This document shows positions 1-57,857 of a stretch of DNA of 64,000 bases, one piece after another. The translations under genes were made by a program, and so were the position numbers. This DNA is from Blasia pusilla (Eukaryota), in contig CM114271.1 of NCBI GenBank assembly GCA_050084515.1, positions 24,552,001 to 24,616,000 of the forward strand, in the 5' to 3' direction. The notes under the pieces were generated by a model that ran no database searches, was not told where the DNA came from, and saw only the letters and a list, made by a program, of their open reading frames with translations. Numbering within the stretch: position 1 is the first letter of the stretch; each line of letters starts with the position of its first letter.

Positions 1-2039
1 TGGGGCGTATAACTCTCCACCGAAGCCGAGAGCTCCGGTTCCAGAGCCACCCTTGGTAGTGACTCCATCATCACTTCCAACGATTCCCAAAATCGGGAGG
101 GCAAGGCCGAAAGTGATTTTGCAAGAGCTCTCGGACGATGACGAGTGAGTTCAAAGAACTCAACGACCAGCTTGATTTGCGGCGTTTGGAGTAGGGACTT
201 TTTGATAATTTGGCGAGAAGATTTCATAGAATAGATCAAATGTCTGATTCCAAGCTTTTTCGGATGATATAAAGCAGAAGATTTATTCGATCGATGGTGG
301 TGCTTGTAAATGTTTGGTGATCATTTTGTCTTTCGAATGTGATCGTCTATGTACTCCACGGTCTTCTACTTTGCAACCCGTCGGATTTCTCCCGCTTGCA
401 ATTTTCACTTTATGACCATCGCAACCCGTCGGATTTCTCCTCCTTGCAACTTTTTGCTTTTTGACCATGGACCCTTTTACCACCTCCAGGCAGCTTTGTC
501 TGATTCGACAGTTGCCTGATCGGACCCTTTCGGATCGGCGATGGCGGGCTTCTTCCCTTGGCACATTCCCTCAACTCGTAAAGGAAGGCGAGGCTTCTTT
601 TCTTCTCGACGTGTTGGATTCCTTCTACCTGTGCGGTTGCCATAGTGGTATTACCGGGGGCGGAGCAGATATTGATCTTGGATGGGTGTCACATTGCAGA
701 GCGTACAAGGTATCTTGCCGAGGAAGGCGGTGGGACTCGAGACAGTTACATGGGACCGTTATGGTGTACCTAGGGGGGCCAAGGCTCTCGGTCGCCAACA
801 TTTTCGATCCCCGTCTACAACCGGCCGGGAGGAGCCACTTGAATCCCGGGACATTCCTTTGGTACATGCCATCGAGGAGAGTTAGGAGTAAATTTGTAGA
901 TGACGAGGTGAAGAAATCATAGACTAGGTTCAATGTACATTTCGAGGTTCCTTCGGAGGTAATAAAGGGCGAGATTTTTGAACCCATAAAGGTGTTGGTA
1001 AAAGTTTTCGGAATATGTTTTTGGACTTGTGGAGGTGGTGCAAGAGAAAGGCCCAAAGGCGAGTGTCCAAGAACAAGTCAAGAAGATTGTACAAGGTGAT
1101 AATGCAGCCAAGTCACTCCATTGACCTCAAGCCTAGAGGAGACAAGGGAGATGGTGTAGGCACTAGGGAGTCTCAGGGTATCCAATGAAGGAGATAGAGT
1201 GCTTGATTGTTTGTTGTAGAGGAGGGTTTGAACCAAGGGGTGGATCTGATTGTTAGGGCCAAGAAATGAAGAATAAGGGGCTAAGAAGAGGTCAATGGAG
1301 GCTGAGCTCAAATGCTTGGACTCTTGTGGGCTAGAAGATTCCTCATGGAAGCCTAGAGGACCTCATTTGAAGGCCATAAAGCTTGAGAATCCAAGGGAGA
1401 GATCTATGGAGTTGAGAGGATCCAAGGAGTGATTTGTGGAAGATTTGTGCGAGGTGGAGCTAAGTGGAGGTGTGAGCGAGGGCGGGGCTCGAACCAGATT
1501 GAGAAGAAGCAAGCATGGGAAGAATATAGAGGTAGATCTCACCTTCAAGCATGTCCAAGAGACAGTCGAGCCTATGCCATCAATGTTGCTCAAGAGGCTT
1601 TAGTTAGGGCAGGTTTAGAAGTAGATGAGGTAGAAATTTCAGGCAGTAGATGCCTTGGAGTAGATGCTTAGGGTTGGCATCCGGGTGGTCCTCCAACAAA
1701 AATACCAAGGGCACCTTTGCTTTTTTGTTGACCGAGATGGGGAGATGTTAAGAAACTTAGGCTCACATGGAGAGTGATGGAAAAATGTTTGTAGTGGTCT
1801 TATGATGTCTACTTTTTTTTCGCCCCAAGGAAAAAGGAGGTTTTTTTAGGGCCAAATGTGGACCACTACCTACTCTCTTCTAAAGATTTCATGGATTTGA
1901 AAGCAAACAAAAATTTCAAATATGTCATAAAGTTTTGAAGAGAGGAGGCGGATTTGGCCCTTTTTTTTGAAGAGAGACTCTCCTCTCTTCCTCTCTTAAA
2001 TCTCTCTCTTACTCTCTCCTGCGAATACGGCCCGGGGCA

Positions 2040-3684
2040 GTGCGGCGTTGCAGGCGGCACAAAACGGCTACAAACAGCACGGCCCTCGATGGTGGGATGC
2101 GACACTCCACGGCATACTCTCCTCAATAAGAAATAAACCCACACTCTGCTCCACAATGACGGTGCAACTCCACGATCGAGACGGTGCCGTGCCGTGCGGC
2201 CACGAACGGCATGGCGCGGCAATCGGCGGCGCGTTACAGCTACAGGCGTCACGGCACTGTGGTCGATCGTCATCGATCGGCTACCAATCACAACATAGCA
2301 CCATGAAATAAAAACTCAAACACCATAATTGGACGTCATCTACCATCACTGGTTGATGACGAAACTGCAATGACGCTGGCGGCCAAACCAAAGTACGTTG
2401 TGGCGGCGCAAGTCAAAGAATCAAAGATCCTCCACTCCGTAATGGCGGCAATGGAAACCAAAGGGTGGACAACATCCGAATGCAGCTCTAAGCAACACTC
2501 GGCAACGGCAACGGCCGACGGTGGCCGGTGAACCCTGGACCGTTGACGGTGACAGTTGACCGTTGATGGTGATGACGAACCGTTGATGTTGACGGTGACG
2601 ATTGACCGTTGATGGTGATGTTTGACTGTGGACCGTGATGGTAGACCGTCGACGGTGATGGTGACTATGAAGGTAACGGCCGCCGCCGGTGTGGCGGCTG
2701 GTTTAGGGTTTGAACAATTTAACCCTAAAAATCACCTAGCAATGGCAGTTTTGCAAGATTGACCATAACTTTTTACTCGCAACTCCAAATTGCGCACCGT
2801 TTGTTGCACAACGTGCACAGCTTCACAGACTACAACAATGTAAAAAGTATTTGGAATTGGAAAATCCAGTAAAAATTGACGGGGACTGTTGTAAAGACCA
2901 ATGTCTCTTTCTCCTACACAAAATTCGGCAGCGACTCCGTGCTGATTTTTCCCAACCAAAATGTGAAACATGTTAAAATTACAAATCAGAAAACTACATG
3001 GTGCTCCCAAGAGCACCGGCATGGGGCAACCTGTCCCCATGATCCATCCCTATAAGAAATTGGGCAGCGCTTCCACGCGCCACTCTTTCACACGAAAAAT
3101 CGGCAAATACGAAGAACAATCAAAGCAGCCCTTGCTCCAGTGAGCAGTCCCATGAGCCGTTGAATGGGGAACACCATCCCCAACCTAAAAGAACATCGAG
3201 TGACCAATGAGCTCCCCCATGAAGCTCTCTCACTCTCTCATTCTCTCTTTGTAAAGTAAGATCCAATCTCTCTCTATACCATCTCACACCATAGCTCTCA
3301 AAGGTGTGCACTCTCTCTCATGTCAAACCAAACCCACTCTCCTAATGAGAGTCTTGGATTACACTCACAAGGCAAGGGACCTCCCCTCACCCAAGGTCTC
3401 ACCATGGTAACCTATTCTCCCAAGTACCTCCTTGGCTCTTGACTTGATGTAGGAGGTCAAAGACTTATTACCAAAAATAGAATATGATCATATACTCAAA
3501 ATGGTACTTACCTAAAATAGTAAGTTCCTCAATATGACTAAAAATGAGCCGAAACGAAGGGGAAACCTGCTCTCTGAGGTCTCTCGGGGCCTCTACAGGT
3601 CATGCTCAACCTATTGAGTATGTTCTCCACTACTCACAAAGGCGCTCTACTAGATCTCAACAATCTGTCCTAAAAGACGTGACA
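2040..3684 (-). mobile_element. 5' part of a Gypsy-family copy (terminal repeat A1 plus 5' leader), inserted in the leader of the plus-strand copy
   Basis: The reverse complement starts TGTCACGTCTTTTAGG at 3684 and matches 13117-13632. The reverse complement of ~2050-2560 aligns with 5035-5520, the leader upstream of gag in the plus copy. Confidence 0.8.
3252..3684 (-). repeat. Terminal repeat unit A1 (no B unit on either side)
   Basis: Homologous to 13117-13632, 56453-56967 and 59256-59774. Similarity stops after GGATCTTACTTTA, where the other copies continue into unit B. Confidence 0.85.
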
Positions 3685-3752
3685 ACCGTGACCACGGCAA
3701 CTGTCGCTCTCATAGTCACTGCCAACAATCCACCGTCAAAGTTACGCAATCG

Positions 3753-5030
3753 ATGGTATCATGTTGAGAGCCTTTCTTCGAGTAAGGGCGGGCCTTCTAG
3801 CTGTGGTATACGTGGTCGATGCAAGGTGAAGTCTCTAAGAAGTTCTCCTTTTTCAATACAAAATTATTATGTATACTCTCCATTCTCTCACGAAAGATAT
3901 CACAAATGGAAGTTTCGAAGGGATCACTTCTTCGTAATATCGGACCCCGGAATTCCTAACTATAAAATCCCTATAAACTACTTTATCCTTGTACAAAAGA
4001 AAGATAACACAACTAGTGTTAAACCCTACTTGAGCAGGCCTATTGACATCCATGGATCGCTATATGAGGACATACAAAGTACAATCCCATGTCCTTCAAT
4101 ATGTGATGATAGGAGAATCACCGGAGTTCGAGATTGCATGACTTGATTCATGAACGCCTCCCCAAAGTGATAAACTAAATAGCGAGTGAACGAGTTCTTG
4201 TCTACAAAGAGTACCTTGACATGGTAAGGATTGAGGAAAGGAAAGTCGGGCACAACTCATGCTCCACCCCTATCCATGCTTGACAGACATTCTCTACTCT
4301 CTTCAAGAATGGGCTTTGGCGGAATTATTCTCCCAAGAAGGATAATGCACTCTCATTAGAAAAATAACAAGCCAAAAGATTCACTATTTTAGTATGGCTA
4401 AACTCATCTAAGATGACAAGCCTCTCATCTCCACACACACACACCACACTCTAGAAACCTCTCGAAGAATAGAGCATGGTCAAGTTATTTTCCCAAGAAG
4501 GGTGATCCACTCTCATTGGAAGAGCAAGCAATCTCAAAACCATACACTCAAGAGTGACACGAGAGACTCAAAATGTGAAATAGAAGGTGATGAACCTTTG
4601 AAGGTACCTCCTCTTTATATACTCACAAAGGATCCACAAGAGTACGAAATAAGGCTAATATTATCTTGTGCCACATGGCTTCCTCTCAAGGCTTAGCCAA
4701 TCATATTTTGACACAAGTAGATTATCTTTTATCTCTTCCAAAATATCCTCGTTTATCCACTTGATATTTTCCAAATTACCCCAACTACCCTAGCGACCAA
4801 CCAAGACTACTTTTGCTTTTTATTAAAGTACCAATCTCACTACTTTACGTTTATAAAGTGATCTTTTATTTATTACCTTTTTTCTTAAAGTTGGGCCCGC
4901 ATAAAAGAGGCACCATAAAGAAGTTTAAACATGGGAATTTCCTTTTCCTAAGCTAATTTACTTAATACAAATAAAATTCTAGGTAACACTTGATGAGGAA
5001 GGAGTTTCCACACTGGCTGATTTTACTATA
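3753..5030. mobile_element. Probable LTR-like insertion of another family interrupting the Gypsy leader
   Basis: Leader homology stops near 3752 and resumes near 5035. The insert is non-coding with a reverse TATA-like CTCTTTATATA near 4611. No TSD found. Confidence 0.35.
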
Positions 5031-6209
5031 CGACAATGGTCAACCGTCACCGTCAACGGTCAACCGTCCACTGTCGGCCGCTGCCGCTACCTAGCGCTGC
5101 TCAAAGCTGCGTTCGGCCGTTGTTCATCCTTGGATTTCATTGCCGCCATTACGGAGTGGAGGATCTTCCACGACGACCGATGTTTCTCTAACTTGTGCCG
5201 CCACCACATACTTTGTTTTGGCCGCCACTGTCATTGTAGTTTCATCATCAACTAGTGATGGTAGATAACATCATGTTATGCTATTTGATTTTTTCATTGC
5301 ATGCTGCTATGTTGTGATTGATAGCCGCTCGACAATGATCGAGTACGGTGACGTGACGCCCATAGCCGCAACGCGTCGCCGATTGTTGCGTCGTGCCGCT
5401 CGTGGCCGCATCGCATTGTGTCGGTCGCAAAGCCACTCCTTCACTAAAGAGCAGAGTGGGTGAATTGTTGATTGAGGAGGGTATGTCGCCGAGTGCCGTT
5501 CCGTGCCGCCAGTGCCGTACCTCACCGCTGGACCTGCACAACACATCGAGGAGGTTTGAGTAGCGTCAGTACGAGAGGAGTATGACTTCTTGATTAGGGA
5601 AGTTGTCTTCACAATCGAGTTGGGATCAAGATTTGCTGTTTCCAAGGAGCGACATCGATATTCTTGTCAGGTTACCCATTCTGGTCTCTTACCCTACACG
5701 TTTGAGGGATTTTCCAAGTATTGGGAAGTTATTTGGGATATTGGGTTTTGTGCTCATGTTGAGAGCATCGATGATGTATGGGTTTAGGAGATATAGACCT
5801 ATGTGGGATGTCCAGAGTTGAGGATGGTTTGTCGATGAGATGATAGATCAATTGATTTGTTGCACCACAATGCTTGTTGCCGCACAACACAACTCTCAAT
5901 GAGAGAGTGTAGATTGAGTGCCGCATGTTTAGTTTGAGTGATTGAGGGATTACTCGCAAGATTGAGAGTAATCGTGTGAGAGGGGCACTAGGGCCATCAC
6001 GGCATCCTTTCAGGATTTTTAGAGGTGAGGTAGTGGACTAGAGAGTAGCTCTCGAGGGTTTACCCGGAGTGGTGTGAGGTTTCAAGGGTCTCCACGTGAG
6101 AGACCATCTCAATCTCCTTCTGTGTTATCTTCAAACAAGGGGGAGTGTTTAGAGGAGTGTGTTAGTGATCCACCTTACACATTGAGTGGTCCTACCAGTT
6201 GGGCGTATG

Positions 6210-7110
6210 AGATGGACAACCGGGGTAGAGGACCACGTAGGTTTTCGGGTGTTGTAGGCACTATAGAGCTACACGACTTCGTTGCCGAGTTTAGGAGTTG
6301 GTGTGACTCACAACGGGCTAGGAACTCAAGAGAGTTCAACCCGTTTACAGCATGGAATGATATGTTCCAGCATTTAGAGGGGCGCCCATGGACGATTACC
6401 ATGAGTTCTTTCAGAGATATGCCTAGGAGATTAAAGCATGGCGACTTTACTATGACCCACACTATGTGTCATGGACGGAGCCGTTCCCAAATGAGGAGGA
6501 GGAGTCAGGAGAGGCTACTTCCTCTTCCACTAGTGATGTTTTATGAGGGGTCAACATCACTCAGGGAATGATAGAGACTCAGGCTATCCAATCATGGTAC
6601 GCGATGCTGGACCGGACCCTACGGACACGGGTGCGGGAGGGAGTGCTTCTTATGAACACCTCCCGTACGTTGAGAGATGTTTGTAGGACCAGCGAGAACA
6701 TTGAGCGCAATATGGAGGAGGAGAGCATAGCCACCATGGATTCTCGACGAGAGGAGTCACAATTGCCTGCACCTCTAGTGCAGCAATGTGGACTCCGAGA
6801 TAGGTCGACAGTGGCACCACGAGCTTAGGGAGGATACTGGGAGGCCGTGCGACAGAGACTTGCGCCTTCATATGTGGTTCACCAGATTCCGCCCACGATT
6901 ACTTGTTGCTCATGTGGTGGAGCCCATCATCACCGTGATTGCACTCATCAAGGTCATGGACGTGTGCCTTAGCATGGAGGAGGAGACGGTGTTGCATCAA
7001 GAGGTTATCAGTGTGACTATTTTCAGAGGTATGGTCATACATGCGCCAAGTGTTTCAGTTTACACCTTGAGTTACGTTTGGACCGAGGGCCAGAGAGGGC
7101 AGGAGAGCGA
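6210..7110 (+). pseudogene. gag-like region with degenerate zinc knuckles
   Basis: FSGVVGTIELHDFVAEFRSWCD gag-like stretch; CCSCGGAHHHRDC near 6904 and CDYFQRYGHTCAKC near 7012; frameshifted. Confidence 0.65.
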
Positions 7111-7977
7111 GTAGCCGGTCTGAGTGGGCTTAGAGATCGTGCACCAGGTGGTCTTGTTGGGGGACGAGAAGCTGGAGTTTCCCGACAGGGTGGTGGAGCT
7201 GCCGGTGGAGGAGGTAGACTCCGAGCGTGAGGCTGGGATGGTTTCTCAGATACAACAGCTACACGAGCAAATTGCCGTTATAACATTGAGGCTACCTGTT
7301 GTCGGATCCGGGGCATCAACATCATATGGAGCAGCCAGAGATATGGAGGATCCTGGTTGGATATGCAGGGTTGCCCAGATGGAGGCCGGCGTAGTTATGA
7401 TGCGTGGACACTCGCAGAGTTGGATCCACAATGAGGGGAAGCTACGAAACATACCAGACTTCCTTTGTCTTTCACATTGTCTGAGGCGACGAGGATCCCA
7501 TCGATGGGTCCCTTGGAGAGTTGGTGATGTTATTGGTGTGCAGGCACGCAGGGCAATGGGAGAAAGGAGTGCGATGACTCCTATTGTTGATGGTCAGGAG
7601 GAGCATGTATTGAGTACGATGTTGAGGGCGGCCACGATGGTATACCGTGCTCTGCTATTTTCTGCTTCGGATGTTATGACATGGGGAGATACACCCGTCG
7701 AGTTGTTCCGGCAGGCCGCTATGCTATGTTAGCATGGAGTTGGAGTTCTTGCATCACGTTCATAGGAGATTGCAGAGGAGGTGATGGACCTGCCCTTGGA
7801 GCGGATGCTCAGGCCGTCCACGTTAGATTCATGGCAGGCTACAATTGCTAGGATGGCGGACATGCCCGCTAGACCCGCGATAGAGCATGCCATGGCCTCT
7901 CCTGGTGTTGTGTTGCTAGATAACCAGGGAGATGTCTTCCACTTGGTGAGTCCGGAGGTAGATCTCTCAGTCCGCAA

Positions 7978-8300
7978 CGCGTCTTGCTGGATTCAGGAGC
8001 GCAACCCCTTATGTTGGGAAAAGCGTCATTCAGAGGATTGGGCTTGTCGAGAGCCAATGTGGAGCGTTGTCCATTCCGGATATAGAGATCCTTGGATGGA
8101 GTGAGTACCACACAGTATATCACCCGACAGGAGGTCCTGGTGAGGATTTTCCCAGGACAACCTACAGATGAGTCTGTGGTGCGAGCCAAGGCAATAGTGA
8201 TTGATGGAGATTCCTACGACATCTTGGTTGGTGGAGCAGTGTTATACCCGATGGGATTTTTCCTAGATTACTGGGAGGAGTCAACGCCCTACAAACCCGG
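7978..8300 (+). pseudogene. Retrotransposon aspartic protease
   Basis: RVLLDSGAQPLMLG (catalytic D at 7990) and downstream YDILVGG motif near 8215. Confidence 0.8.
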
Positions 8301-8703
8301 ATGGCAGTCAGGTGATGGGCGCCTTACCTCATTACCCATTCGATTCATCGATGCAGTGATCGAGCAACACCCAAGAGAGATGGCGACCTTAGCAACATTT
8401 AGTAGTGCCATCACTTGGCCAAGTGATTTGATTGAGGGACATGTCCATGCAGAGGATACTCTTGTTCTTGAAATTTCTATGGAGAGGAGTGTCATGATAG
8501 CCACATCAGTCCGTGGAGGAGAGGTGCCATTTTGGGGCTCGATTGAGGAGCTTTGACGCTTAGCCAGTGAGCATGCCCATACGACGTGGAGCAAGATGTT
8601 TGCACCAGAGTGTGAAGGTTCAGAGGAACCCGTGGTAGCCAGGATTGCTGCTATGATCCCTTTGGACACCACCCCGATTGTGTGGTGCATCCCATAGGAG
8701 TGT

Positions 8704-9630
8704 ATTCGGGTGTTGGATCTTTTGAAGGGATCAGCACTGGGTTAGTTGCTATTTTGCAGGCAAGAGTACGCGTGCAACCGTACATATATGTGGAGATTGA
8801 TGATGTTGCAAGGCGTGCTTCACTTCACCATGTGGCGCAGTTACACCTCCGTTTTCCTGACTTGTTGTCTGCGTCCGCTATCCACGGATACCAGAGTTCC
8901 CTACCGAGGGATATTTCATTGTTGGGGGTGCAAGACTTGGAGCGGGTAGGGACCATAGATTTGGTCATTGCTGGTTGGCCGTGTTTGGGCCAATCAAGTG
9001 GAGGTTAGATGACACTCAGTTTAGGTTGTTTTGGGAGATGATGCGGATTTTGCGATACTTGCAGGAGCATGAGTCTCGTCCTCCAGCATACATTCTGGAG
9101 AATGTGCCAATTTTGGGCGATTTGAGGTCCCGCGTTATGACGAGTGCACATCAAGTGCACGCATGAATCGGCCCGGCAGTGTTTTTGGATGCGGCGAGTG
9201 TAGGTTCTAGAGCACACTGCGCGCATCTTTGGTGGACCAACTTGGTGCCACATGAGGTTTTGCGGAGGGCGTATACGAGAGTGGAGCGCCCCTCCGATTT
9301 GTTGGTGGTTTCTATATTGGATCCGGGATGTCGATCACAGCCAGTGAGGAACGATGATCGACTGTCGTTGACTATGGTCAACATGATTGGCATGCCACGG
9401 GCAGTCTTTCCCATATTGGTGAGTTTTCCCGCTTCCTATGCATTCAAGGAGGTTGGACCTGGCTTGGTTTGGGATGACCAAATATAGAGGTTGGTGGAAC
9501 CCAACGCCGACGAGCGAGAGCGAGCGATGGGATTCCCCACAGGAGTGACAGAAGTACCGTCACTATCAGAGGCATCACAACATCATGTCTTGGGTCAGGC
9601 GATGGACCTGAACTGCTTGACATGGATTTT
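8704..9630 (+). pseudogene. DNMT3-like C5 cytosine DNA methyltransferase domain inside pol
   Basis: Motif I IRVLDL/FEGISTGL (1-nt frameshift), II YIYVEID, IV DLVIAGWPC, RLFWE, VI YILENV, VIII FLDAASVGSRAHCAHLWWTNL, IX ERERAMGFP, X VLGQAMDL, in unpermuted I-X order. Confidence 0.92.
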
Positions 9631-9999
9631 CATCTTAGAAGTAGTTGAGCAACGTCGTTTGAGGATGCAACAGATCACAGCAGTTGCGTTGGTGAGCCCC
9701 ATGCCTACTGAGAAGGTTGAGGCAATGGCAGGGGGCAAGACCCAAGGAGATCGATAGACCAAGGGTGATCGGAAGAGACTCCCTTGGACTTCTTTGGATG
9801 TCTTGGAGGTACGCTAAGAGATGGTAGCCACAGCATCGAGCGTGGTTCCGGGTATTGCAAATGGAGATCCGATTTTGCAGTTGGCTATAGCGGAGCAATC
9901 AACTTTTCTTTCCCGAGACGGGGTTTCACCATAGCAACCACCAACACTCGAGCCAGAGAGTCCTACCATTGTCACGATGGAGACTTGGGAGTCAGATAT

Positions 10000-10800
10000 G
10001 GGCCCTAAGTTGACAAAAGGAGAGCGGCGCTGGATACACCAGTTCCTTAGGAGTTATAGGAGTTGTTTTGCATTTAGTATGCATGATTTGGGTACGCTGA
10101 AGGGTCCACGGATCCGCATTGATTTGTCGAGTGATACATCGATCTTCTGACGATCCTACAGGTACAGTGACATAGAGAGGGCTCTGATTTAGAGTAGGAG
10201 CCAGGACTTGGTTGGAGCAGTACTAGTGGAGATGTCGCATGGAGAGTATGAATCTACCACTTTCATGCATGCCAAGAAGGATGTGCATGGCAACTGGACG
10301 GATAGGCGGATCTGTGGAGATTACCGACCTATCAATCGGCAGATGAAGTCGGATAGGTATGCCATGCCCACTCCTGAGGAGATCTTCAATGCTATTCGAC
10401 ATGCAAAGATCTTCAATTCGTTAGATCTTTGAGCCGGATACCATCAACTGCCTATCAGATTGGAGGACAGGCAGAAGATGGCATTTTGGGGCATCGATCC
10501 TCACGCAAAGGATTGCTTGTACCAGTGGCGGTTCTTACCATTTCGGTTAAAGAACGCCTCGGATGAGTTTTAGAGGGTCATGGATAAAATCTTGGCAGGT
10601 GTGGATTTTGCTAGGTATTAAATTGATGACATCGTAGTCATAAGCGTCATGGTTGAGAAGCATGAGCGACATCTAGAGGAGGTGTCTCAACGATTGTAAT
10701 TACATGGGTTGAAGCTACATCCAGGCAAGTGCAAGTTCTTCTATGACCAGATTGAGTACTTTGGTCATACAATATACCCATGTGGCCTTGGTGTGCAACA
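10000..10800 (+). pseudogene. Gypsy reverse transcriptase
   Basis: KKDVHG...RICGDYRPIN...DRYAMP, LDL*AGYHQ, LPFRLKNA, *IDD (YIDD site, ~10619-10630), LKLHPGKC. Confidence 0.93.
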
Positions 10801-11450
10801 GACAAAGATAGAAGCTATTTCACGCATTCCACGCCCTACAGATGTGAGTTGAGTCAGTGCATTCATGGGATTGGCAAACTTCTATCGACGGTACGTCAAG
10901 GATTTCAGCTTGATTACAAAGTCGCTCACCTTGCTGACCAAGGTGGATTAGGAGTGGCACTGGAGGAATGAGCACGAGAGAACATTTCAACCGCTCAAGG
11001 ACAGATTGACGTCCGCGCCCATATTGAGGAGACCAATCAGGGGGCGTCCTTTCCAATTGCATACCGATTGGAGCATGTTGGGGCTTGGAGCTGTGCTCAC
11101 CCATCATGACGATGATGGTAGAGAGTTTGTGGTGGCTTACGCTAGCTAGTCGCTCGAACAACGCAGCAAAGGCGAAGTATATCTTGTATGAGGGTGGATG
11201 CTTGGTTGTAGTTTGGGTTGTTGCACATTTCAGATGTTATCTATTAGGCAATCCCTTTACCATCATTACTGATCATCAGCCACTTAAGTGGTTGATGGAG
11301 TCCGACAAGCTTACACGGAAACCTTCAAGGTGGGATCTTTTGTTGCAGGAGTATGACTTCCATGTGGTGCATAGACCTAGGATGCTCAAACAGGATGCAT
11401 ATGGTTTGAGCTGTAACCCATGCCCAAGTCAGCGAGATGCGACTGGAGCT
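10800..11450 (+). pseudogene. Gypsy RT connection and RNase H
   Basis: FMGLANFYRRYVKDFS, FQLHTDWSMLGLGAVL, YEGGCLVVVW, FTIITDHQPLKWL, RWDLLLQEYDF. Confidence 0.9.
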
Positions 11451-11809
11451 TGTAGGCATGGTGAGAGTGATGAGGAGTTTTTGCCAGGATGGCATGCGTC
11501 AGCCTATTTGGGCTTGTTGGCTATGCAGAGCCAGATTGTTGAGACTTTGATGGCGAGGTGTGATGGAGAGTCCTTAGATCCAGAGGTTGGTGAGGAGATG
11601 ACAAGTGGCTGAGACATTCACGACAATGGCATGGTCTTGGAGTACCTGCGTACTGGCAGCGTCACGAGCACATTGGGTACTAGAGAGCGGGATCCCATCC
11701 TACAGCGAGCCAGACGGTTCCGGTGGGAGGGGACATATTTTTTGCGAGTTTGGGAGGATGGTAGAGTGTGCGTGGTGCCTCATCCTTCATAGAGAGCATG
11801 TTTGGTGCG

Positions 11810-12535
11810 TCATACCCATGAGGAGTTGGGTCATTTTGGAGTAAAGCGGACGTACAACTTGCTCCAGATATAGTATTGGTGGCAAGACATGCAGACTGAC
11901 GTTCATCAGTTTGTTGCCAGGTGTATGTGTGATCGAGTCCGAGCATCGTTCATTGCTGCGACTCCACAGTGCATCCACTTCCGATCATGGGTTTAGGTTA
12001 TAGATGGAGTTTGGATTTTGCAGGACCTTTGCCTTTGACAAAGCGCCATAGTTGTTATGTGTTGGTGATGGTCAAGGACTTCTCAAAGTGGACAGAGTTG
12101 GTTGCATTTCCTGACAAAACAAGTGAGGAAGTAGCGTATGCCTTCCTAGATCGAGTGTTGAGTCATTACAACACACCATTTGAGGTGTTGACAGACCAAG
12201 GTACATAGTTTCGCGGGGAGTTTCAAGCCTTGTGTGATCAAGCGTTGATCGACCACCACACTACTTTGCGAGATCATCTTGAGGCGGATGGACTAGCGGA
12301 GCAAGTTGTGCAGACGGTGAAGAGAGGATTACGCAAGTATGGCTTGCAGAGAGATATACCTAGGAGATTGGGACTTCCAATTTCCGTGGTTGGCGATGGG
12401 ATACAGATTCATCACGCACGCATCCTTAGCATCTTTCTCATCGTACTTGCTTTTGTATGGCCGAGAGCCAGATTTACCTACAGCCATTCGTCGAGATGTT
12501 GGTGAGGTGTTGAACCTTGATGACCCTGATGTATG
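11810..12535 (+). pseudogene. DDE (rve) integrase with N-terminal HHCC motif
   Basis: HEELGHFG...C.C; WSLDFAGP; LTDQGT*F; DGLAEQVVQTVKRGL. Confidence 0.92.
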
Positions 12536-12659
12536 GTGTTATCTTATTGGAGGGACGCGATGGTATGGTTCGGAAGGACCATTGCGTAATTGTGCACCGT
12601 GTCACCTTCCGAACATTGACGGTACAATTGATCCAAGCTTAGCAGTAGTTTCTGCAGGC

Positions 12660-12806
12660 TTGCGATGTATGTTGTGTGGTTGTGCCCGTGGTGCACCCAC
12701 AATGCTAGTATGTGATGGATGTTCGAGAGGATGGCATATGGCATGTTTGACGCCATCTCTCACTAGGGTTCTTGATGGACAATGGATGCGTCCCAGATGT
12801 ACATAG
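12660..12806 (+). pseudogene. PHD finger at the integrase C-terminus
   Basis: CMLCGCARGAPTMLVCDGCSRGWHMACLTPSLTRVLDGQWMRPRC (C4HC3 with one Cys lost), then the stop codon. Confidence 0.88.
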
Positions 12807-12977
12807 AGTAGATAGTTCTACATTCTGACTTGTGTGTGCGACATGGATGACAAGTATGCGACTAACGATGGGGCCACATGAGCACCCGACCTTCTTGCTC
12901 TTAACGTCCGAGAGATGTATGTCATGGTAGATAGGGATATATAGCTATCTGGAGTTAGAGGGACCTAACCACCAACT

Positions 12978-12987
12978 AGGGGGGCGA
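12978..12987 (+). promoter_or_regulatory. Polypurine-tract-like sequence
   Basis: AGGGGGGCGA directly before repeat B1; same position in the copies at ~57097-57106 (-) and ~59113-59126 (+). Confidence 0.65.
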
Positions 12988-12988
12988 T

Positions 12989-13746
12989 TAGAGATATTTT
13001 GGTACTTCTTGTCTCGTTGCTTGGATGCCATGAGTTAGCATGGGATCGTGCGTGTTTGTGTGTGTGTTTGGTTATAGCGATGTATGTTGTGTAGCCATGT
13101 GTATGCGCAGGACAACTGTCACGTCTTTTAGGATAGATCAGTGAGATCTAGTAGAGCGCCTTCGCGAGTAGTGGAGGACAGGCTCAGTAGGTCAAGGATG
13201 GCTTGCTGAGGCCCCGGGAAACTTGAGAGAGCAGGTTTTCCCTTCGTTTCGGCTCATTTGGAGCCATATTGAAGAACTTACTATTTTAGATAAGTATCAT
13301 TTTGAGTATATGATTGCATTTCTATTTTTGGTAAGGGGACCTTGACCTTCTACATCATGTCAAGAGCCAAGGAGGTGACTTGGGAGCATAAGTTACCATG
13401 GAGAGAGATTGGGAGAGGGGAGGGATATACCTCAAGGAGAGAGAGCTTGAGAGCTCATTCTTTCTTTGTTGAACCTCTTGGCATGAGGCAGCGGAGCTAT
13501 GGTCTTGCTTGCCTTGTGTGTGTAACCCAAGCCTCTCATGAGGAGAGTGGGTTAGTTTGACATTGAAAGAGACATGTGAGAGTGCACGCATTTGAGAGCT
13601 ATGGTGTTGAGAGAGATTGGATCTTGATTTATTGGACATATTTTGGTACTTCTTGTCTCGTTGATTGGATGCCATGAGTTAGCATGGGATTGTGTGTGTT
13701 TGGTGACAGCAATGTATATTGTGTAGCAATGTGTATGCGCATGACA
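12989..13746 (+). repeat. 3' terminal repeat block B1 (12989-13114) - AC - A2 (13117-13632) - B2 (13633-13746)
   Basis: The ~120-bp B unit (GATATTTTGGTACTTCTTGTCTCG...GTGTATGCGCA.GACA) occurs twice around the ~515-bp A unit. Junction reads GGACA AC TGTCAC. Confidence 0.88.
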
Positions 13747-14125
13747 CGTCCCCTATAAACACTCCCCTTTTTTGTTTTTTTCCATCTATCCTCCGTGTTT
13801 ACTAATTATTTTCTCTCCCACCTCTCTCAAAGGGCTACACATGGGTTGAATCCATCTTGAAAAGGTGTGTTTTTTTTAAGTCGTTAGTTCATATTTATCA
13901 AGATTATAATGAATTCCATGAGTGGAAGTTTGTTTTTCCTAGTGATTTCCTCTAGTATCCATACAAAAGTTACTAGTATTTAACACTCACTACCTCTTAG
14001 GATGAAAGACGACACATGATGAAATTTAGAAATGTGTAAACTTACTTATGTGAAAATATTTGTATGAATTAAAAAGTTTATATCACTTTTTCAAGGGCTC
14101 TTTTGAATTTCAAATTCTTGTTAAC

Positions 14126-14610
14126 ATCTATATAATTAAAAGAGGATGGGATTGGAAGAACACTTCCTCTGGTGTTGACATTTGTACTTTTTACACTCCT
14201 CCGATATTATCACATGTTATATTTAACAGAATAATTAAAATAACAGGTCATAGACTTAACAAATATCTTTTCCCTCTCTATGAGTGGCATAATTCCCTTA
14301 GTTTTCATCGTGAGGGAATTACGCTAATTTTAAACTTATTACATCTCAATATGACAACTTTTGGGGCCAATCTCTAAATTATTATAGGAGAGTGTCTTCT
14401 TGATTTGCAAATAACTCTCTATTTGACACGTGGCAAAGTGGGTAGAAAAAAACATTTCATATGCCATGCGCACCCCAAAAAAATATTAGAATTTGTGTGC
14501 AACATCATTAGTCCCTTCACGGGCTATACACTATCCAAAGCTCTTCAAACACTTTGTTATTTCCAATGTACCTAAATAGTACATACTAAGTGTCCGTTGC
14601 AAATGGATAA
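14126..14610 (+). mobile_element. Helitron-like non-autonomous fragments
   Basis: A|TCTATATAATTAAAAGAGG start, with relatives near 55673, 61351 and 61527. The GGAGAGTGTCTTCTTGATTTGCAAAT module recurs at ~33682, 33887, 39620 and inverted at ~34320, 35140, 40030, 53100. Confidence 0.5.
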
Positions 14611-33604: not shown

Positions 33605-34090
33605 ACACTAGTGTATATGTGTCCATCCATTCCTTCATTTTTTTTACGGTTCACTAATGTTCTACCCCATCTATATTATTATTGGAGAGTCTTTTCTTGA
33701 TTTATAAATATTTTTTTTTCATAACTGACAATTGGACAATAAAAAAATATTTCATATGTTATGAACAGCAAGAAAAAAATTTGAATCATCAATTCATTCA
33801 TTGGCAGTACACTAGTGTATGTGTGTCCATCCATTCCTTCATTCTTTTTATGGTTCACTAATGTTCTACCCCATCTATATTATTATTGGAAAGTCTCTTC
33901 TTGATTTGCAAATATTTCTTTGTTTCACAAGTGGCAATTGGAGAATAAAAAAATATTTCATATGCTACGGGCATCAAAAAAAAAAAATTGAAATTGTTTG
34001 CAATATCATTAATCTTTTCATGTGCTATACACTAGCAAAAGCCCTTAAAACACTTTTTTTATTTCCCGTGCAACGCTTGGCACCTTATTT
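33605..34090 (+). repeat. ~205-bp direct duplication containing Helitron-like 5' ends
   Basis: ACACTAGTGTAT.TGTGTCCATCCATTCCTTCATT...CCCCATCTATATTATTATTGGA at ~33605 and ~33809; CCCGTGCAACGC near 34065 resembles a Helitron 3' hairpin remnant. Confidence 0.65.
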
Positions 34091-37000
34091 TTGTACCATA
34101 GAATCATTAGTCTAGATTCATAAACATTAGTGTGGATTAATCATGATTCACACCGATCTGTAAGTGCACTTGTTGTCTTCAAGAGGGTTTTTTTTCTGCC
34201 CTAAGTATGAAAAGTATTTCCGTCTTGTTTAAATGTAATGTGTCTTCTTTCTTGCTTCCCGTAGCATGTGAAATATTTTCTTGTTGCCTAGTTGCCACAT
34301 GTCAAACGAAGAGGTGTTTGCAAATCAAGAAGGCACTCTCCCATAATAATATAAATGATAACATTAAATTAGTGGACATGCGGTGAATAAAGTTTAATGT
34401 TCAAAAAGATAACAAAAAATAAGAAACTAGAATTTTCTTACAATACGTCTAACTTGGCTTAGGAAAATTTTCATATATTTTCATTTTTTAATTTTGGAAA
34501 AATACATTTATCCCTTTTCCAATCCCCATCTTTCAATAAGTTGAAGAAAATCACTCGTTTTGATGTTTTTTTCCCAAAAGAGGGATTACAATTTTCTCCC
34601 AATCAAACATGAAAAAAAATAGTGTACAAAGAAGATTTCTTTCAATTTTCTTAAGAGTATTTCCTGTCCCCATTAGCGTCCCTTTATCCTTTTCACTTTT
34701 CCCCAAAGTATGGATGAATTTTCCCTCAAAAAAATTTCTAATTAATTTTTGTTATAAAATTTTTTGCATGAAACTTTTTAAAATAATTTTTAATTTTCAA
34801 ATCATAAAAGATAATAAAAATGAGGGAGACCCTAAGAGAATTTATTATTAATAAAATTAATAATTCCTAAAAGTAACCTAATTATTAAAACCTTCCCCAT
34901 TCTTGTTTTTTGTTTATTATAGGGTAAAATTTTCAAAAAAAGAAAACATGAAGCGGATTCATGGACAAACTAGATATCGTTCATTTATTGGTCTTCAGAG
35001 TGAGAAAACGTACTAAATAGTTTGAAAATTAAGAAGGTGTTCTCCCATAACACTTTGTCTCTAAAATATTTTCTACACGTAATATAAAAATTATTTTCTT
35101 GTTCTCCGAGTGCCACGTGTCAATTAAAGGTGCAATTGAAAATCAGAAAGGTGTTCTCCCTAAATAATATAGATGGCTTCTTTTCCCCTTATTTCCTCTC
35201 TTCCTTTACTAAACACTAAATTTCCTTTGGATTTCATGTCCATCTTTATATTCATGTTTTGTTTCCTTATACTAAAGAGTTGTTTGCACTCTCTTCCTCT
35301 CACTAAATTAGGGTCTAGTTTTTTTTCATTTTTAGGGTGTGGCCTTAGTGTTCCCAAACCTTAGTCCCCTCCTTGTATTTCCGATGAGTTCTTTCCCCTT
35401 CTTTTATTCATGTTTTGTATCCTCTTATTGAATTCGTTGTACAAACTACTTGTTTGTGCTCTTTCCTTCCTACCAAATTGGCATTCCCTCTTTCTTTCTT
35501 TCTTTTCTTTTTTAGGATATGGCCTTAAGTTTCCCCAAGTCTTGATCCCCTCCTTCTATTTCCGTTGGGTTCTCTCCTCTTCTTTATGGCCCTCACTAGT
35601 AGTCGATTTCGAGGGCATATGTTACAAAATTAAATTTATTTTGCAAGTAACTTCTCAACCGTCCAATGTGAATAGAGATGTGATTACAACCCTCACTAGT
35701 AGTCAATTCCAAGTGCAGATGCTGCATTCGGAATGCAAGTTATTTTGCAAGTAATTTCTCAACCATACGATGTGAATAGAGATGTGAGCCGTAATAAAAA
35801 CATCTGAACTCACTCTGTATAAGTTAGATATTTTTGTGCTAATAATTTCTCTCTTATTTCTCCACATAATGTTACTCCCCCGTCTTCCGTTTCTCCACGC
35901 GGTGTTACCCCCGTGTTTATGCCCCTCCATGCGGTTAGCATTTCTCTTGTCATGTTGTTAGTGTTGTGTTAGTGCTTATTAGAGACTAACACGGAGTATT
36001 TTTTAACATAATGCGTAAAAAAATATTAATACAGCATGTTTAAATGCCGTAATTTTGGTTTTAAAAAACCCAAAACCAGGGCCGCATTACTAGTTCATCC
36101 ATGTTTTGAATCCTCTTACTCAATTCATTTCATGAACTAGTTGTTTGTACTCTCTCCTATTATGTTTAAAAATAGCGGATCCATTTTTTGGTCTCTATTG
36201 TTGGATATGCTAGTGAGTACCTCATATATCAAAGATTGGTCCATGACAAAACCATTATTTTTTCCCCTCCTTTTCTCCCTCCCTCTTATTTAAGTTCATT
36301 TCCATCTCCTTCTTCTAATGGAAAAATTATTTCCTTGATTTAATGGTTATTCATAATAATAGAAAATGAATGGTTAGAGCAAAGTGCTTTTGCACAAGAA
36401 TTTTCACTATTGGTATTCATTTTGCATAGGCAAATTCTCTCTAGAAGATTTTCTTATTGTTTCATGTAATGAACTAATTTTCCATTTACCATAATGTTAT
36501 GTATCAAGCAAGTAGACTTTTCAAATGTCACCTGCTCGCTATAGGGTAGATGGAAAATATATATCCACTCCCATGCTAATAGATCTAGAATTTAAGAAAA
36601 ATATGGCTTCTCTAATATAAAATTTTAATAAAAGAATGTATGGAAAAATTAATTATTTGTGTTATACGCAAATGTTTTAGAGTAAGTTTTTTGGTCTGCC
36701 AAACATTTTCTAAAATTTGGCGACAAACTTTAAATCTTGATGCAAACATATGAAGTAAAAATTAAATGGGGAATGTAGGGGTGAGAATCAAAAGGATGCA
36801 TGGTATTTCTACTATTTCCTAGAGTATTATAACTTTTCACCATTTGGAAAAAAATAAATCTTAAATTTTCTCCTTCCATCAATCCCATTCTAGAAGAATT
36901 TATTTTTCATCATTTGTTAATCTCTATTAAACATTTACAAAGAATGAATAATTGGTTATGATTTAGTATAGTTCCTTGCAATCTACATTTATTAGTAGTT

Positions 37001-40000
37001 CATCTTGTAACTTTGGTTCAAAGTTGCTTTGAATACAAGTTTAAAATGATGGGAGGGTAGAATATAGGGTTCATGATCTACTGTACCCTATTACGTGTTT
37101 ATTACAAGAAACATAGCATGATTTTAGATTGCATGTTATCAAATAGAGTAACAATGGAGTTTCGAATGTATTTGGGGCTCATATTGCTGATGATTGTAAT
37201 AAATATGTTTATTTTATTTTGTAACAATAAAATTTGTATGATGGGAAAAAGTTGGAGCCACGTGCAAAGATGAACTTGGAGTTGTGGGAGTGAGGGAGAG
37301 CAAGTTGAACTTGGCCAAGGTGAAGTTGGAGCAATACGAACAAGGTAGCAATTCCAAGTTGGTTGAGGGCGTCGTGAAGTATTTACGGCCCCTACAGACA
37401 CTCCTATTTTTTTCCTCTCCATCTAGAATATCCACGTGTCATCCACACACATTCACTAATTACTTTCTCTCCCATCCCTCTTAAAAGGCTGCATACTGGT
37501 TTTGGTAAGTTATCCATCAATGGATTTGCTTGGATCAAATTCGATTTTTCATATAATAGTAGATGAGATGTGGATAAAGTAGTGGTGATGACCACATTTC
37601 TTTTGCTCAACTGGTGAATTTCTTTTGAAGGGACTATGTTTGGAGACTTGTAGCTCTCAAGCTCCTAGACTCAAATACAAGAGAAGTATTTGAGTTCAGG
37701 AGCTTGAGAGCTACAAGTCTCAAACACAAGAGAAGTCTTGCACTTAGTTGCAGTAGACGAAAAATTGACATGTTGATTGTAGGAGTAGAAGAAATCTCCA
37801 ATGAGAAGATGACAAGGAGGAGGAACTTATGCCTTATGCCATACATAGTTCTTAAATCCTCGGCTATTTATCTCTTTTTACTCATTCAATTGTGGTTGCA
37901 CAATTTATGTGAAATCTTTGATTGGCAGTGTTAACTAAGAACTCTTGGCTTCTCTTCCCCAACTCTCACCATCCGTAGATTTTTGGGTACACGTGTCATG
38001 ACCGGTCGTAAGCCTAATTCTTGAATCTTCAACCCATTTAATAATGCATCCTTTAATGTCGTTGACTGAGGTTATAGCCTACGTTGCACAATCTTCTTTC
38101 ATCCTTTTTCCATATCAAATTTGATTTTTTATGTAGAGAATAAGTTACAATTTAGGACTACAAATATTATTCAATCTTCACAAAGAGTTGAATAGAAAAT
38201 TCCAAAAAGATGTTCTATTATCCAAGAAGACGCATTCTCCGTCTTAGCATATGCATTCAAGAAAGTATAATGGTCAATCTATGCTTGTGCATTGTGTAGG
38301 CACTATGACTAGCACCCATTATCATAATAGTTTCTAAGATTTATGATAAATCGTTGTAATTATAAGGAATAGATGTCTTATATTTCTTAGAGGGAAAACA
38401 AGACAAGGATCTTCTTCCTTTTTATAAATTTCATCTATGGGTGTTTTAAAAATAAATCATGGATATGTCTAAAGTAAGTTCTGCCATAATTATGGTATGA
38501 TTTATCCTAATAGTCGCACCCAACCTAAGAGGTGAAAAGAAGTAACATTGTTTGCACATATTGCGGTGCAAATATGCAATATGGGAAGGAACCAAGAGAT
38601 TAATCATATTGCACATGAATGAATTCTTTTTTTCTTATTGCACATAAAATGAGAAATATGTTGTAGTACGCTCATTGCCATGTGTCAAGCATATAGGTAT
38701 TTGTAAATCAAGAAGCAACTCTTCCTTAACATGTGACATGAAAAATGTATCTTGCTATAAATATGTTGAGAGGTCAAACACTCTCACTTTACGTGTTTGT
38801 CTTTTAATTCTAAATAATTTTACATGGAAGAAGAGATTTGAAGATAATGAAGAGATATTTGAAAATTGTGAAGTTGTTGAGGAAAAAATAAAAAATTTAT
38901 GAAGCAAAGGACTTGGCCTAAGAACCAAGAATTATATGGAGTGGACATAATCATGAATAGTGGTCATAAAAAGCCCTATATCGTGATGACATATATAGAA
39001 CATTTTACAAGGGTGATTCCATAAATTTAATGTGAGATCTCTATCATCATTAAACCAATTTTCATGGATTTTAAAGTTTCAATGATAGACTTACAATGAT
39101 TCTAACTTCTAAAGTTTATTTCCTTGACAAAAAACTCAAACCATATACCAAAATTAATTAAAAAGTCAGTCATAGACATTTAAAAAAAATGATGGGTTAA
39201 AATTGGATTAAAAAACAAGAAAGCCTTTGATATTCTTGAATGATGGGTCATAATTGTATTCCCAATGTTCCATGATTACATAAAAAATTCTCGAGTATTG
39301 TCGGTGCTATGCACATGCGATAATTCTCGAAATTCAAAAAAACTCCATTCTGGTATCTCCCTTCCCCTCCTCCCTTAACTTACCTCTCTCCTCTTAACCT
39401 TTAACTTAACTCCCTCCCTTAAATTAACATATATCTGCATCAAAAGAATCCTGAAACAAAGGATAAGTGTCAATAGTACGAGGAAGTATTTTCTAAACTC
39501 ATCCTCTCTCATTAGTATAGATGATTTCACAATTGAAATCCAAAAAAATCAACAATCTAGAAGTATCATGATATTTAAATTAGAGTATGGCAGTATACAA
39601 GAGAAATCTATATTATTATTGGAGAGTGCCTTCTTGATTTGCAAGAATCTCTTTGGTTGACATGTGGCAACCGGACAACATGCGAATGTTTCCTCCCTCT
39701 AAGGGCAACAAGAAAACGATTTCCCTTCACTTTCGTGCAAGGTACAAGCTGCCCACTAGTCATACTTATATAGAGATTGAAGGGGAATTTTGAGTATTTG
39801 TAAGTGGTCTTAGTAGTCAAAGAATATTCACAAGAAATTGATTTAGATTATGATTTGATCTGTCATTGAATAGCAAAGAGGATAAGACTTATAACGATTA
39901 TAACTATTAGTGTAAGGCCCGCGGCCTACAAGGATTTGTCATGCTTCACATAAGTTCAAAATTTTGCCATCCCGAAAATATTTGCTTGTTGCTCGAGTGT

Positions 40001-40110
40001 CGTGTGTCAATCAAAGAAGTGTTTAAAATTAAAGAAGGTGTTCTCCCATAATAATATCGATGATGATGAATAATCCATATAAAAACATGTCATTTTCAAG
40101 TGCATTTGTT

Positions 40111-43200: not shown

Positions 43201-43622
43201 ATGAAGATTTTTCTGCAATTGATCGGCGCAGACGAAGCTGCCGGTTGAGCTTAACCCTACTGTGCTACATTGTGCATATTAGCTGGTAAAGAAGCGAGGG
43301 ATTCGGGCACTCTACTCCATCTCTCTACTCCGAAACTGTCTCATGAACTTCAGGTTTCCAGAAGATCGGATGCAGGTGACAGAGCATGTTGACTGACGGG
43401 TACAGGGCTATGCGCGGTTTCCGGGGGTCATAGGCAGGGATTTGTTGGAAATTGATGCTTTGGAGGCCTATCCACTTTTCATGTCGAAACGATGCTTTGG
43501 AGCGTAGTAATGACAGTGCCTTCTTCTGTGTCTCTTCAGAGTCGAGTCGAGGGGCGCCTGCTGGCAGCGGAGGAGATACACCTTCTTCCGCTTCCCGGAG
43601 CCGCAAAAGTTGAAAGGGTACG

Positions 43623-57856: not shown

Positions 57857-57857
57857 G

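Follow-up and report, generated by a model that had tools for sequence, protein, structure and literature searches.

Textbook long terminal repeat (LTR) retrotransposons carry two equal LTRs, because the same boundaries serve reverse transcription and integration. A 64,000-nucleotide stretch of the Blasia pusilla genome (GenBank assembly GCA_050084515.1, contig CM114271.1, positions 24,552,001–24,616,000 of the forward strand; hereafter the window, meaning the whole stretch analysed) contains four partial copies of a Gypsy-type retrotransposon that departs from this plan, and raises the question of how an element with a DDE integrase can be built from split direct repeats. A first-pass annotation, made from the letters alone, had proposed the order A1...B1-A2-B2, likened it to the tyrosine-recombinase retroelements of the PAT/Ngaro type, and suggested that the family may use non-canonical priming or strand transfer while keeping TGTCA/TGACA integrase ends. 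We show here that the normal integrated form, in this family and in its wider clade, is A1–leader and coding region–polypurine tract–B1–NN–A2–B2, in which NN is a two-nucleotide spacer. The element is a decayed, very high-copy bryophyte Ty3/gypsy-type retrotransposon with its closest proteins in liverworts, and we are highly confident that the split layout is genuine and clade-wide.

Split repeats in the window, in related elements and in reads

We mapped the repeats by blastn of positions 12500–13800 against the window and by a four-way alignment (Table 1). All three 3′ ends in the window, in copies c1, c2 and c3, read B-NN-A-B, with the annotated boundaries standing to within 1–2 nucleotides (nt), and B1 and B2 of c1 are 83.6% identical across 128 nt. 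The sole 5′ end, in copy M, is likewise as first described: A alone from TGTCAC, running directly into leader with no B. This A1 lacks an internal piece of about 66–84 nt. M and c1 are linked through the leader, of which M positions 2565–2100 are about 75% alike to c1 5034–5498; the similarity of c1 to the M leader ends at 5034, and a leader-like stretch at 3685–3740 was rejected as part of c1 because its alignment is too weak. No copy in the window has both ends, c1, M, c2 and c3 all being partial, so the caution that the 5′ and 3′ ends come from different copies holds and is resolved only through reads and related elements elsewhere. Copies c2 and c3, both of them 3′ parts, lie inverted to each other and meet near 57630–57857 within a single target duplication, and the pair resembles a palindromic complementary DNA (cDNA) with two ‘right’ ends, inserted by a single integrase event.

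To find relatives we scanned metagenome contigs with an alignment of integrase–PHD polyproteins, which yielded 80 loci. Self-comparison identified six full copies with both ends on one contig (L022, L040, L047, L050, L068 and L070), and all six have the arrangement A1...B1-NN-A2-B2 with the ends TGTCATG...CAYGACA. In these copies B1 scores 185–278 against B2 and 16–24 against the 600 nt on each side of A1. Placed relative to the A1 start and the B2 end, target duplications are perfect 4-bp matches in three of the six (TTTA, AAGG and CCAA), match at three of four positions in two and are lacking in one; the integrase-type ends are thus retained together with the PAT/Ngaro order, as had been suggested. 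We classed further 3′ ends, at the 52 loci with at least 700 nt past pol, by comparison with B and A segments collected at 17 loci. The 3′ end is B-A-B at 21 loci, B only at 19, B-A at two and A-B at one, with nine unrecognised or partial; for L073 and L074, both counted as B only, a weak resemblance to A beyond B means that they may be misclassified. At the 5′ end, A can be recognised in 24 of 47 loci, and in every one of the 24 it stands alone. Within these 47 loci we found no B upstream of pol, no A-B-A and no canonical B-A at the 5′ end, nor did the related loci and the six full copies reveal the arrangement that would count against a split layout, a 5′ A-B or B-A-B followed by a transfer RNA (tRNA) primer site.

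The single-B loci (L013, L014, L017, L018, L024, L031, L059, L076 and 11 more) have the form A...polypurine tract–B, followed by flank. Among six single-B copies the 4-bp duplication is perfect in four, matches at three of four positions in one and is lacking in one, which brings the perfect duplications to 7 of 12 relatives overall. L017 and L018, at different loci, have the same duplication, TACA.

The family-wide form was then examined in sequencing runs labelled as this species. Genomic reads (X12; about 2 Gb, about 1% of the run), two Logan contig sets and RNA reads were mapped to positions 1–14000 of the window at 80% likeness, and we considered the 15 best-supported of 642 joints and the best six X12 groups of loose ends (from 11,635 groups over four runs). 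A pol depth of about 3,000 in X12 marks a very abundant family. Diverse AT-rich flank (agreement 0.33) is joined to the A start at 13117 in 1,166 X12 reads, and the B end at 13114 is joined to diverse sequence (agreement 0.32) in 1,186; since A start and B end are tied to diverse flanks in equal numbers, they are the ends of the insertion. The B end is followed by no conserved leader or primer site in the X12 reads, and a joint from B end to leader is absent among the best 15 of 642 joints, which include rows down to 37 reads. In a further 622 X12 reads the M-type A end (3252/3) is connected with the B start (12987/8), a joint that we read as running from A to B because c2-like copies must yield such reads; it occurs in two main variants 1 nt apart. 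Entry into this A segment from the internal A piece is seen in about 1,470 reads (rows 3377/13504, 3381/13500, 3378/13503 and 3379/13501), so that about half or fewer of such A copies continue into B. Depth is 856 at 60 nt into the M leader and about 700–1,360 over the leader as a whole, and 88 reads support a joint between 2040 and 5545. The depths of A, B and pol stand at about 5,600, 5,500 and 3,000 (rough sums, with B taken from mixed bins), which points to two A and two B per element rather than the three B that a B-bearing 5′ end predicts. That A1 continues into leader in the other copies is probable, because of this depth and the missing B-to-leader joint, and is an indirect rather than a counted result.

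RNA reads (X15) show sense transcription. Relative to DNA, joints from A to B are reduced about threefold in RNA (10 of about 70 reads against 622 of about 1,470; small numbers), a weak hint that most transcripts stop near the A end. An apparent RNA beginning at 13636 is probably alignment clipping at the A|B joint and was discarded as a transcript end. All B copies carry a variable GT- or TA-rich microsatellite-like stretch (13060–13076 in c1), at which 1,457 reads clip with a variant consensus agreement of 0.65; as only the 3′ copy has it just beyond the A end, it might, at a guess, be a downstream polyadenylation element.

Two sets of boundary signals, one repeat module apart

The 15–16 nt directly following the A end in M can pair without mismatch with a site inside A. 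This candidate self-primer site is intact in c2 and c3, has one mismatch in c1 (13454–13468) and lies within the piece deleted from the A1 of M. The match of 16 nt in the window compares with a maximum of 11 nt in 1,289 control windows. Five of the six full relatives have exact complements at the A1 boundary of 13, 17, 15, 13 and 13 nt, each exceeding all 1,158–1,455 control windows from the same element (maxima 10–12 nt). The partner of the primer site lies 114–159 nt 5′ of the A end, and the primer-site sequence varies between lineages while its pairing is preserved, a pattern of covariation. Predicted folds of the RNA between self-primer and primer site bring the 5′ end onto the primer site in L040 (z −2.9) and L050 (z −5.5). 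In the A2 of c1, a TATA-like ATATA at 13425–13429 lies about 25–29 nt upstream of the self-primer-like site, which is only a hint that the partner of the primer site may be the RNA 5′ end. By contrast, no TGG typical of a tRNA primer site occurs at the A1 end or after the B end in the junctions compiled, and ARAGORN found no tRNA gene in the window. Two leader stretches that look tRNA-like by eye, TGGCGCG... and one resembling GCCGTTGCC, are distant from the A end and were dropped. Self-priming of the Tf1 kind thus probably takes the place of a tRNA primer, and the expectation of non-canonical priming finds support in a covarying, self-complementary site placed exactly at the A1 end, where a tRNA primer site had seemed to be lacking.

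The other predicted boundary of reverse transcription is equally regular. A G-run ends 0–5 nt before the B-repeat homology in 19 of 20 loci (for the remaining one a wrong G-run was selected by the script), and in the window the polypurine tract ends 0–3 nt 5′ of B. At the A2|B2 joint of 20 loci, the A end (the base preceding the primer site) meets the B start (the base after the polypurine tract), with a position that varies by 1–3 nt among copies; L037 was left out of this count because its row was mis-anchored. The B1|A2 junction has the form CAYGACA-NN-TGTCAYG, and its spacer is exactly 2 nt in all 26 junctions (AC in nine, GT in seven, GC in six, AT in two and CA in two; purine–pyrimidine in 24); in L040 the junction is a perfect 16-bp palindrome. 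The outer ends of the element are the same two half-sites without NN, and B1-NN-A2 therefore looks like two element ends abutted across a 2-nt spacer.

Comparison of these junctions shows that the predicted boundaries of reverse transcription, polypurine tract|B and A|primer site, delimit B-NN-A, whereas the predicted integrase boundaries delimit A...B. The two putative signal sets are out of register by one B, and the integrated copy corresponds, on this assignment, to [B-NN-A]–internal region–[B-NN-A] shifted cyclically by one B and reduced by one NN. Conservation of this separation across diverged lineages and thousands of copies argues for at least one extra regular step between cDNA and insertion.

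From cDNA to insertion, and the alternatives

Self-priming alone does not account for the split layout, and we infer an additional step of transfer or joining. The RNA would start at the self-primer in A1 and end at the A2 end, and reverse transcription primed by the self-primer and the polypurine tract would produce a DNA with B-NN-A at each end. The right A end would then be joined to the left B start, through a third template switch in the particle or through end-joining into a two-repeat circle, and integrase would cleave the 5′-repeat palindrome just after each CA, the two cuts being offset by 2 nt. Such cleavage would create A start and B end together, both already processed, with NN lost. 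A...B-A-B would be the sole arrangement that has integrase ends and also gives an RNA carrying R at both ends, and single-B copies would derive, at least sometimes, from recombination between B1 and B2. We speculate that the plus strand, on reaching the A end, might change template to the left B in single-stranded form, and that this switch would halt at the 5′ palindrome and leave it pre-nicked. The joining of the A end to the B start followed by opening of the palindrome is a tentative proposal that we place somewhat short of an even chance; of the two halves of the original suggestion, priming stands on the covarying site, and strand transfer enters as a postulated step. That the whole streptophyte Gypsy clade with DNA methyltransferase (DNMT) and PHD domains might integrate from an inherited junction-like palindrome, rather than from the ends of reverse transcription, is possible but rather doubtful. 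Closure of the cDNA by annealed overhangs of primer site and polypurine tract was rejected, as the observed A|B joint contains neither sequence; the two sequences are alike around TCTAG in the L022 type, and unlike in the L040 type and in the window.

Several points weigh against this account. The relatives that carry both ends come from other organisms, on metagenome contigs, and not from the genome of the window. At 19 of 52 loci against 21, single-B 3′ ends almost match B-A-B in frequency, and could be primary unit-length insertions rather than recombinants. Some 600 reads breaking off loosely at 3252 could be concealed below the best six X12 groups, and the direction of joints between ‘opposite strands’ is interpreted rather than given by the mapping. 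Pairing at the primer site of L047 reaches only 9 of 11 matches, and the A1 of M itself lacks the self-primer site. Transcript start and polyadenylation positions are predicted, and no step after reverse transcription and no extrachromosomal form was observed. Finally, a two-repeat circle opened at random predicts A-B-A 5′ ends in equal numbers, yet none was seen among 24; this favours an asymmetric route coupled to reverse transcription, unless such copies were lost, and the asymmetry of the opening is left unexplained by the model.

The frequency of single-B ends suggests a different account, in which the unit that normally integrates is A...B, cut from a one-repeat circle or from both palindromes of a linear cDNA, and A...B-A-B is a rarer by-product and the only transcribable form, so that the element would live largely as an episome, in the manner of a pararetrovirus, with integration only an option. 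Among the circular by-products of LTR elements, one-repeat circles are the most common, and the 19 ends in which polypurine tract and B run into flank, with perfect duplications in four of the six examined, fit such an origin. It is nevertheless unlikely. The single-B copy L014 and the B-A-B copy L070 are the same insertion, with flanks 96–97% alike and CCAA duplications in both, and therefore recombination between B1 and B2 makes the single-B form at least sometimes. A single-copy insertion would also give no RNA with R at both ends, yet the family has thousands of copies, and the depths of B, A and pol are roughly 2:2:1 rather than 1:1:1. Inside the element, L014, which lacks A2 and one B, agrees with L070 at only about 89%, and the element seems to change more quickly than the DNA on either side.

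Joining of DNA ends would be dispensable if reverse transcription were primed at the B1|A2 junction and made A...B-A-B itself. A minus-strand primer on the A2 start would let the DNA begin at the B end, a short copy of B would move to B2 in read-through RNA, and a plus-strand primer at the B end would set the A start. This would explain why the element ends match both sides of B1-NN-A2 and why NN resembles the usual dinucleotide between LTR end and primer site, and 10 RNA reads do cross from A into B. These crossings are, however, the joints under-represented about threefold in RNA, in small numbers. The A start is conserved over just 7 nt across lineages, too short for a shared cellular primer, and the TGG signature and tRNA genes sought above are missing. 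Nor did the six full copies yield a second self-primer: complements of the A start or B end are scattered matches of 9–10 nt with no consistent partner. This failure to find a further primer site at the junction counts against priming there alone. Purines are not enriched at the B end, and the primer site at A1 and the G-run before B1 are given no role. We judge this explanation improbable, a shade more so than integration of A...B units.

Far less probable still is an ordinary element bounded on both sides by an LTR of the form A-B or B-A-B, in which the lone A of M is a deleted LTR that lost B and a tRNA primer site, and B1 is a family-specific duplication beside the 3′ LTR. The single 5′ end of the window does come from a diverged subfamily and does have an internal A deletion, and A-B has good TGTCA...TGACA ends. 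The related loci largely refute this explanation, with B absent upstream of pol in all 47, A alone at all 24 recognisable 5′ ends, and no B near A1 in the six full copies. The reads agree: no B-to-leader joint is among the best-supported, and the 1,186 reads past the B end diverge (0.32) where a conserved primer site would give a clear consensus. The covarying self-primer site sits exactly at the A1 boundary, and the polypurine tract precedes B1, not A2. Least probable of all is that B-A-B is a separate miniature element (terminal repeat B, interior A) at a Gypsy 3′ end, or an assembly artefact: B follows a purine run, has TG...CA in some lineages and forms a compact block with A, but this reading is refuted because target duplications span A1 to B2, and A is also the 5′ end of the same elements, flanks meet the A start and B end rather than the B start, and the structure recurs on 21 independent contigs and in raw reads.

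Polyprotein, surroundings and known systems

The polyprotein runs in the order protease, DNMT-like region, reverse transcriptase (RT), RNase H, DDE integrase and PHD finger. In c1 it is decayed, and Pfam recognises RNase H, the integrase zinc domain, the DDE core and the C-terminal PHD finger of a Gypsy-type polyprotein, with RT recognised by tblastn with the intact relative L001. The more upstream part of c1 (7628–9655) is degenerate and has no Pfam match of its own; within it, 8721–9655 is 43–48% identical to the PF00145-bearing part of L001, as seen by tblastn only in this decayed sequence. Open reading frame (ORF) 1 of L001 has PF00145 at E 1.8e-13 between protease and RT (L001 976–5082), and the further domains of L001 are RVT_1, RT_RNaseH, Integrase_H2C2 and rve, in this order. 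PF00145 occurs together with RT, integrase and PHD in many relatives, among them proteins of Marchantia and of metagenomes, and the integrase–PHD frame matches proteins of Marchantia, Calypogeia and Sphagnum. Pfam detected no tyrosine recombinase domain in window ORFs of at least 70 amino acids (aa), in ORFs of 30–69 aa from the element regions outside the M copy (1–3300, minus strand) or in the two L001 ORFs; the integrase domains PF00665 and PF17921 are present instead.

The window is plant nuclear DNA, with a GRAS gene end, a KDM8-like gene, a MULE transposase and a proteasome alpha exon. Between M and c1, positions 3737–5035 hold another high-copy repeat (X12 depth about 800–1,160). Its RNA reads favour one strand, RNA molecules begin at 4757 and 4779, and there is an abrupt boundary at 5035, where 112 RNA reads go on differently. 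Dispersed direct and inverted repeats of about 90 nt, in AT-rich DNA around the KDM8-like gene, look like miniature inverted-repeat transposable elements. A 741-aa open frame at 43614–45836 (+) lies in GC-rich DNA and matches no Pfam family at E ≤ 0.001, and a unit of about 190 nt in three tandem copies, 68–86% alike, adjoins the GRAS gene end at 62498–62993.

Table 1 Features of the split-repeat element and of a dispersed repeat in the window
Feature	Position	Strand	Remarks
M leader	2040–3236	−	other copies continue differently past 2040
M self-primer binding site	3237–3251	−	directly 3′ of A1 end; 15 nt (16 with base 3252)
M A1	3684–3252	−	starts TGTCAC at 3684
c1 internal region	5034–12977	+	5′-truncated, strongly decayed, 120 stops in one frame
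c1 protease-like and DNA-cytosine-methyltransferase-like part	7628–9655	+	tblastn with L001 ORF1
c1 RT, RNase H, integrase, C-terminal PHD finger	9980–12803	+	PF17917/PF17919, PF17921, PF00665, PF00628; tblastn
c1 RNase H	10952–11609	+	
c1 integrase zinc domain	11874–11993	+	
c1 rve	11933–12205	+	
c1 polypurine tract	12978–12987	+	G6 run, 0–3 nt 5′ of B1
c1 B1	12988–13114	+	ends ...GGACA
c1 spacer	13115–13116	+	AC, 2 nt, of palindrome-like B end/A start junction
c1 A2	13117–13631	+	TGTCAC...; alignment
c1 B2	13632–13746	+	element 3′ terminus, ...TGACA
c2, 3′ fragment	56344–57630	−	
c2 PHD ORF	57628–57287	−	then polypurine tract
c2 B1	57097–56970	−	
c2 spacer	56969–56968	−	
c2 A2	56967–56455	−	
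c2 self-primer site in A2	56631–56617	−	
c2 B2	56454–56344	−	
c3, 3′ fragment	57857–59900	+	
c3 internal piece	57857–58095	+	
c3 unrelated insert, about 1 kb	58096–59097	+	then polypurine tract
c3 B1	59126–59253	+	
c3 spacer	59254–59255	+	
c3 A2	59256–59773	+	
c3 B2	59774–59900	+	
ACTT, 4-bp target duplication around inverted pair c2 + c3	left 56340–56343, right 59901–59904		
Repeats of about 90 nt	14372–14458, 33669–33959, 34271–34359, 35089–35177, 38654–38742, 39606–39692, 39976–40064		

In this family the boundaries of reverse transcription and of integration are one repeat module apart. New here are the layout in bryophytes, including close relatives of Marchantia proteins; 4-bp target duplications and integrase-type ends that accompany it; a covarying self-primer site with no tRNA site; and the palindromic nature of the internal B|A junction, whose spacer is constant at 2 nt. 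The regeneration of split repeats becomes a defined and testable question, and LTR finders that expect two equal LTRs will mis-annotate a very abundant family.

PAT and Ngaro, of the order DIRS, are tyrosine-recombinase retroelements with split direct repeats A1...B1 A2 B2. The window family shares this repeat order, and in both, only the internal B|A junction holds the two termini complete. It differs in having a DDE integrase, inverted TG...CA ends and 4-bp duplications, and for these reasons it is not a DIRS-order element; its RT, RNase H and integrase are of Gypsy type. With Ty3/gypsy elements it has in common the order RT–RNase H–DDE integrase, TG...CA termini and a 4-bp duplication, and it departs from them in having A only at the 5′ end and B-NN-A-B at the 3′ end in place of two equal LTRs, and in having no tRNA primer site. 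If the proposed route is correct, DIRS/Ngaro elements and integrase-bearing split repeats would be convergent ways to regenerate ends from an internal junction.

A split layout with a Gypsy-type polyprotein has one precedent, KnitGypsy-Dnmt3 of Klebsormidium nitens, for which a DIRS-like repeat arrangement with Gypsy-like domains is given in the legend to Fig. 4c of de Mendoza et al. 2018 (PMC5890265), where Fig. 1e defines the DIRS type as A–coding region–B-A-B. A streptophyte ‘Gypsy-DNMT3’ is also named in bioRxiv 10.64898/2026.05.21.726589. The likeness lies in a Gypsy-type polyprotein that includes a C5 DNA methyltransferase (PF00145 in L001, and a decayed homologous region in c1), and the window family most likely belongs to this Gypsy-DNMT3 clade, KnitGypsy-Dnmt3 being compared by description only. 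The hosts differ, charophyte there and bryophyte here, and the window family has a PHD finger past its integrase, whereas the term PHD is absent from the main text of PMC5890265. The available text there, while it describes the layout, does not deal with ends, target duplications, the primer site or a mechanism. The literature searched yielded no account of such a layout in bryophyte Gypsy elements, nor of its mechanism, which is weak evidence given incomplete coverage. REM1 of Chlamydomonas has a PHD in a Gypsy integrase, according to a citation in PMC6673714. A possible parallel in Dictyostelium DGLT-A, with modular unequal LTRs, was not borne out by the available text of PMC5006619 and was dropped.

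For the priming step, the nearest comparison is the Tcn1 (Tf1/Sushi) clade of non-seed plants, in which self-priming has been predicted (Neumann et al. 2019, PMC6317226). There, as here, a tRNA primer site is lacking, the bases after the 5′ repeat pair with a site in the repeat that would be the RNA 5′ end, and the hosts are non-seed plants. As described there, Tcn1 elements have two equal LTRs and a chromodomain, whereas the window family has split repeats, a PHD finger (PF00628) and a DNMT, and the resemblance would be one of predicted priming anatomy.

For the opening of the junction, retroviral integrase has been described as cleaving the palindromic LTR–LTR junction of two-LTR circles in foamy virus (PMC1180852) and HIV-1 (PMC1905944), which parallels the proposed cutting of an internal palindrome of abutted ends by a DDE integrase. 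The retroviral junction is a ligation by-product, whereas that of the window family would be inherited inside the element and copied through RNA. Circles of the IS3/IS30 type also have abutted inverted ends, 2–3 bp apart, that a DDE enzyme opens for insertion. These are bacterial DNA-only elements without reverse transcription, and the comparison is one of analogy only; if it extends to the window family, the palindrome would be opened with a 2-nt stagger as in insertion-sequence circles, a prediction that is genetically testable in Marchantia.

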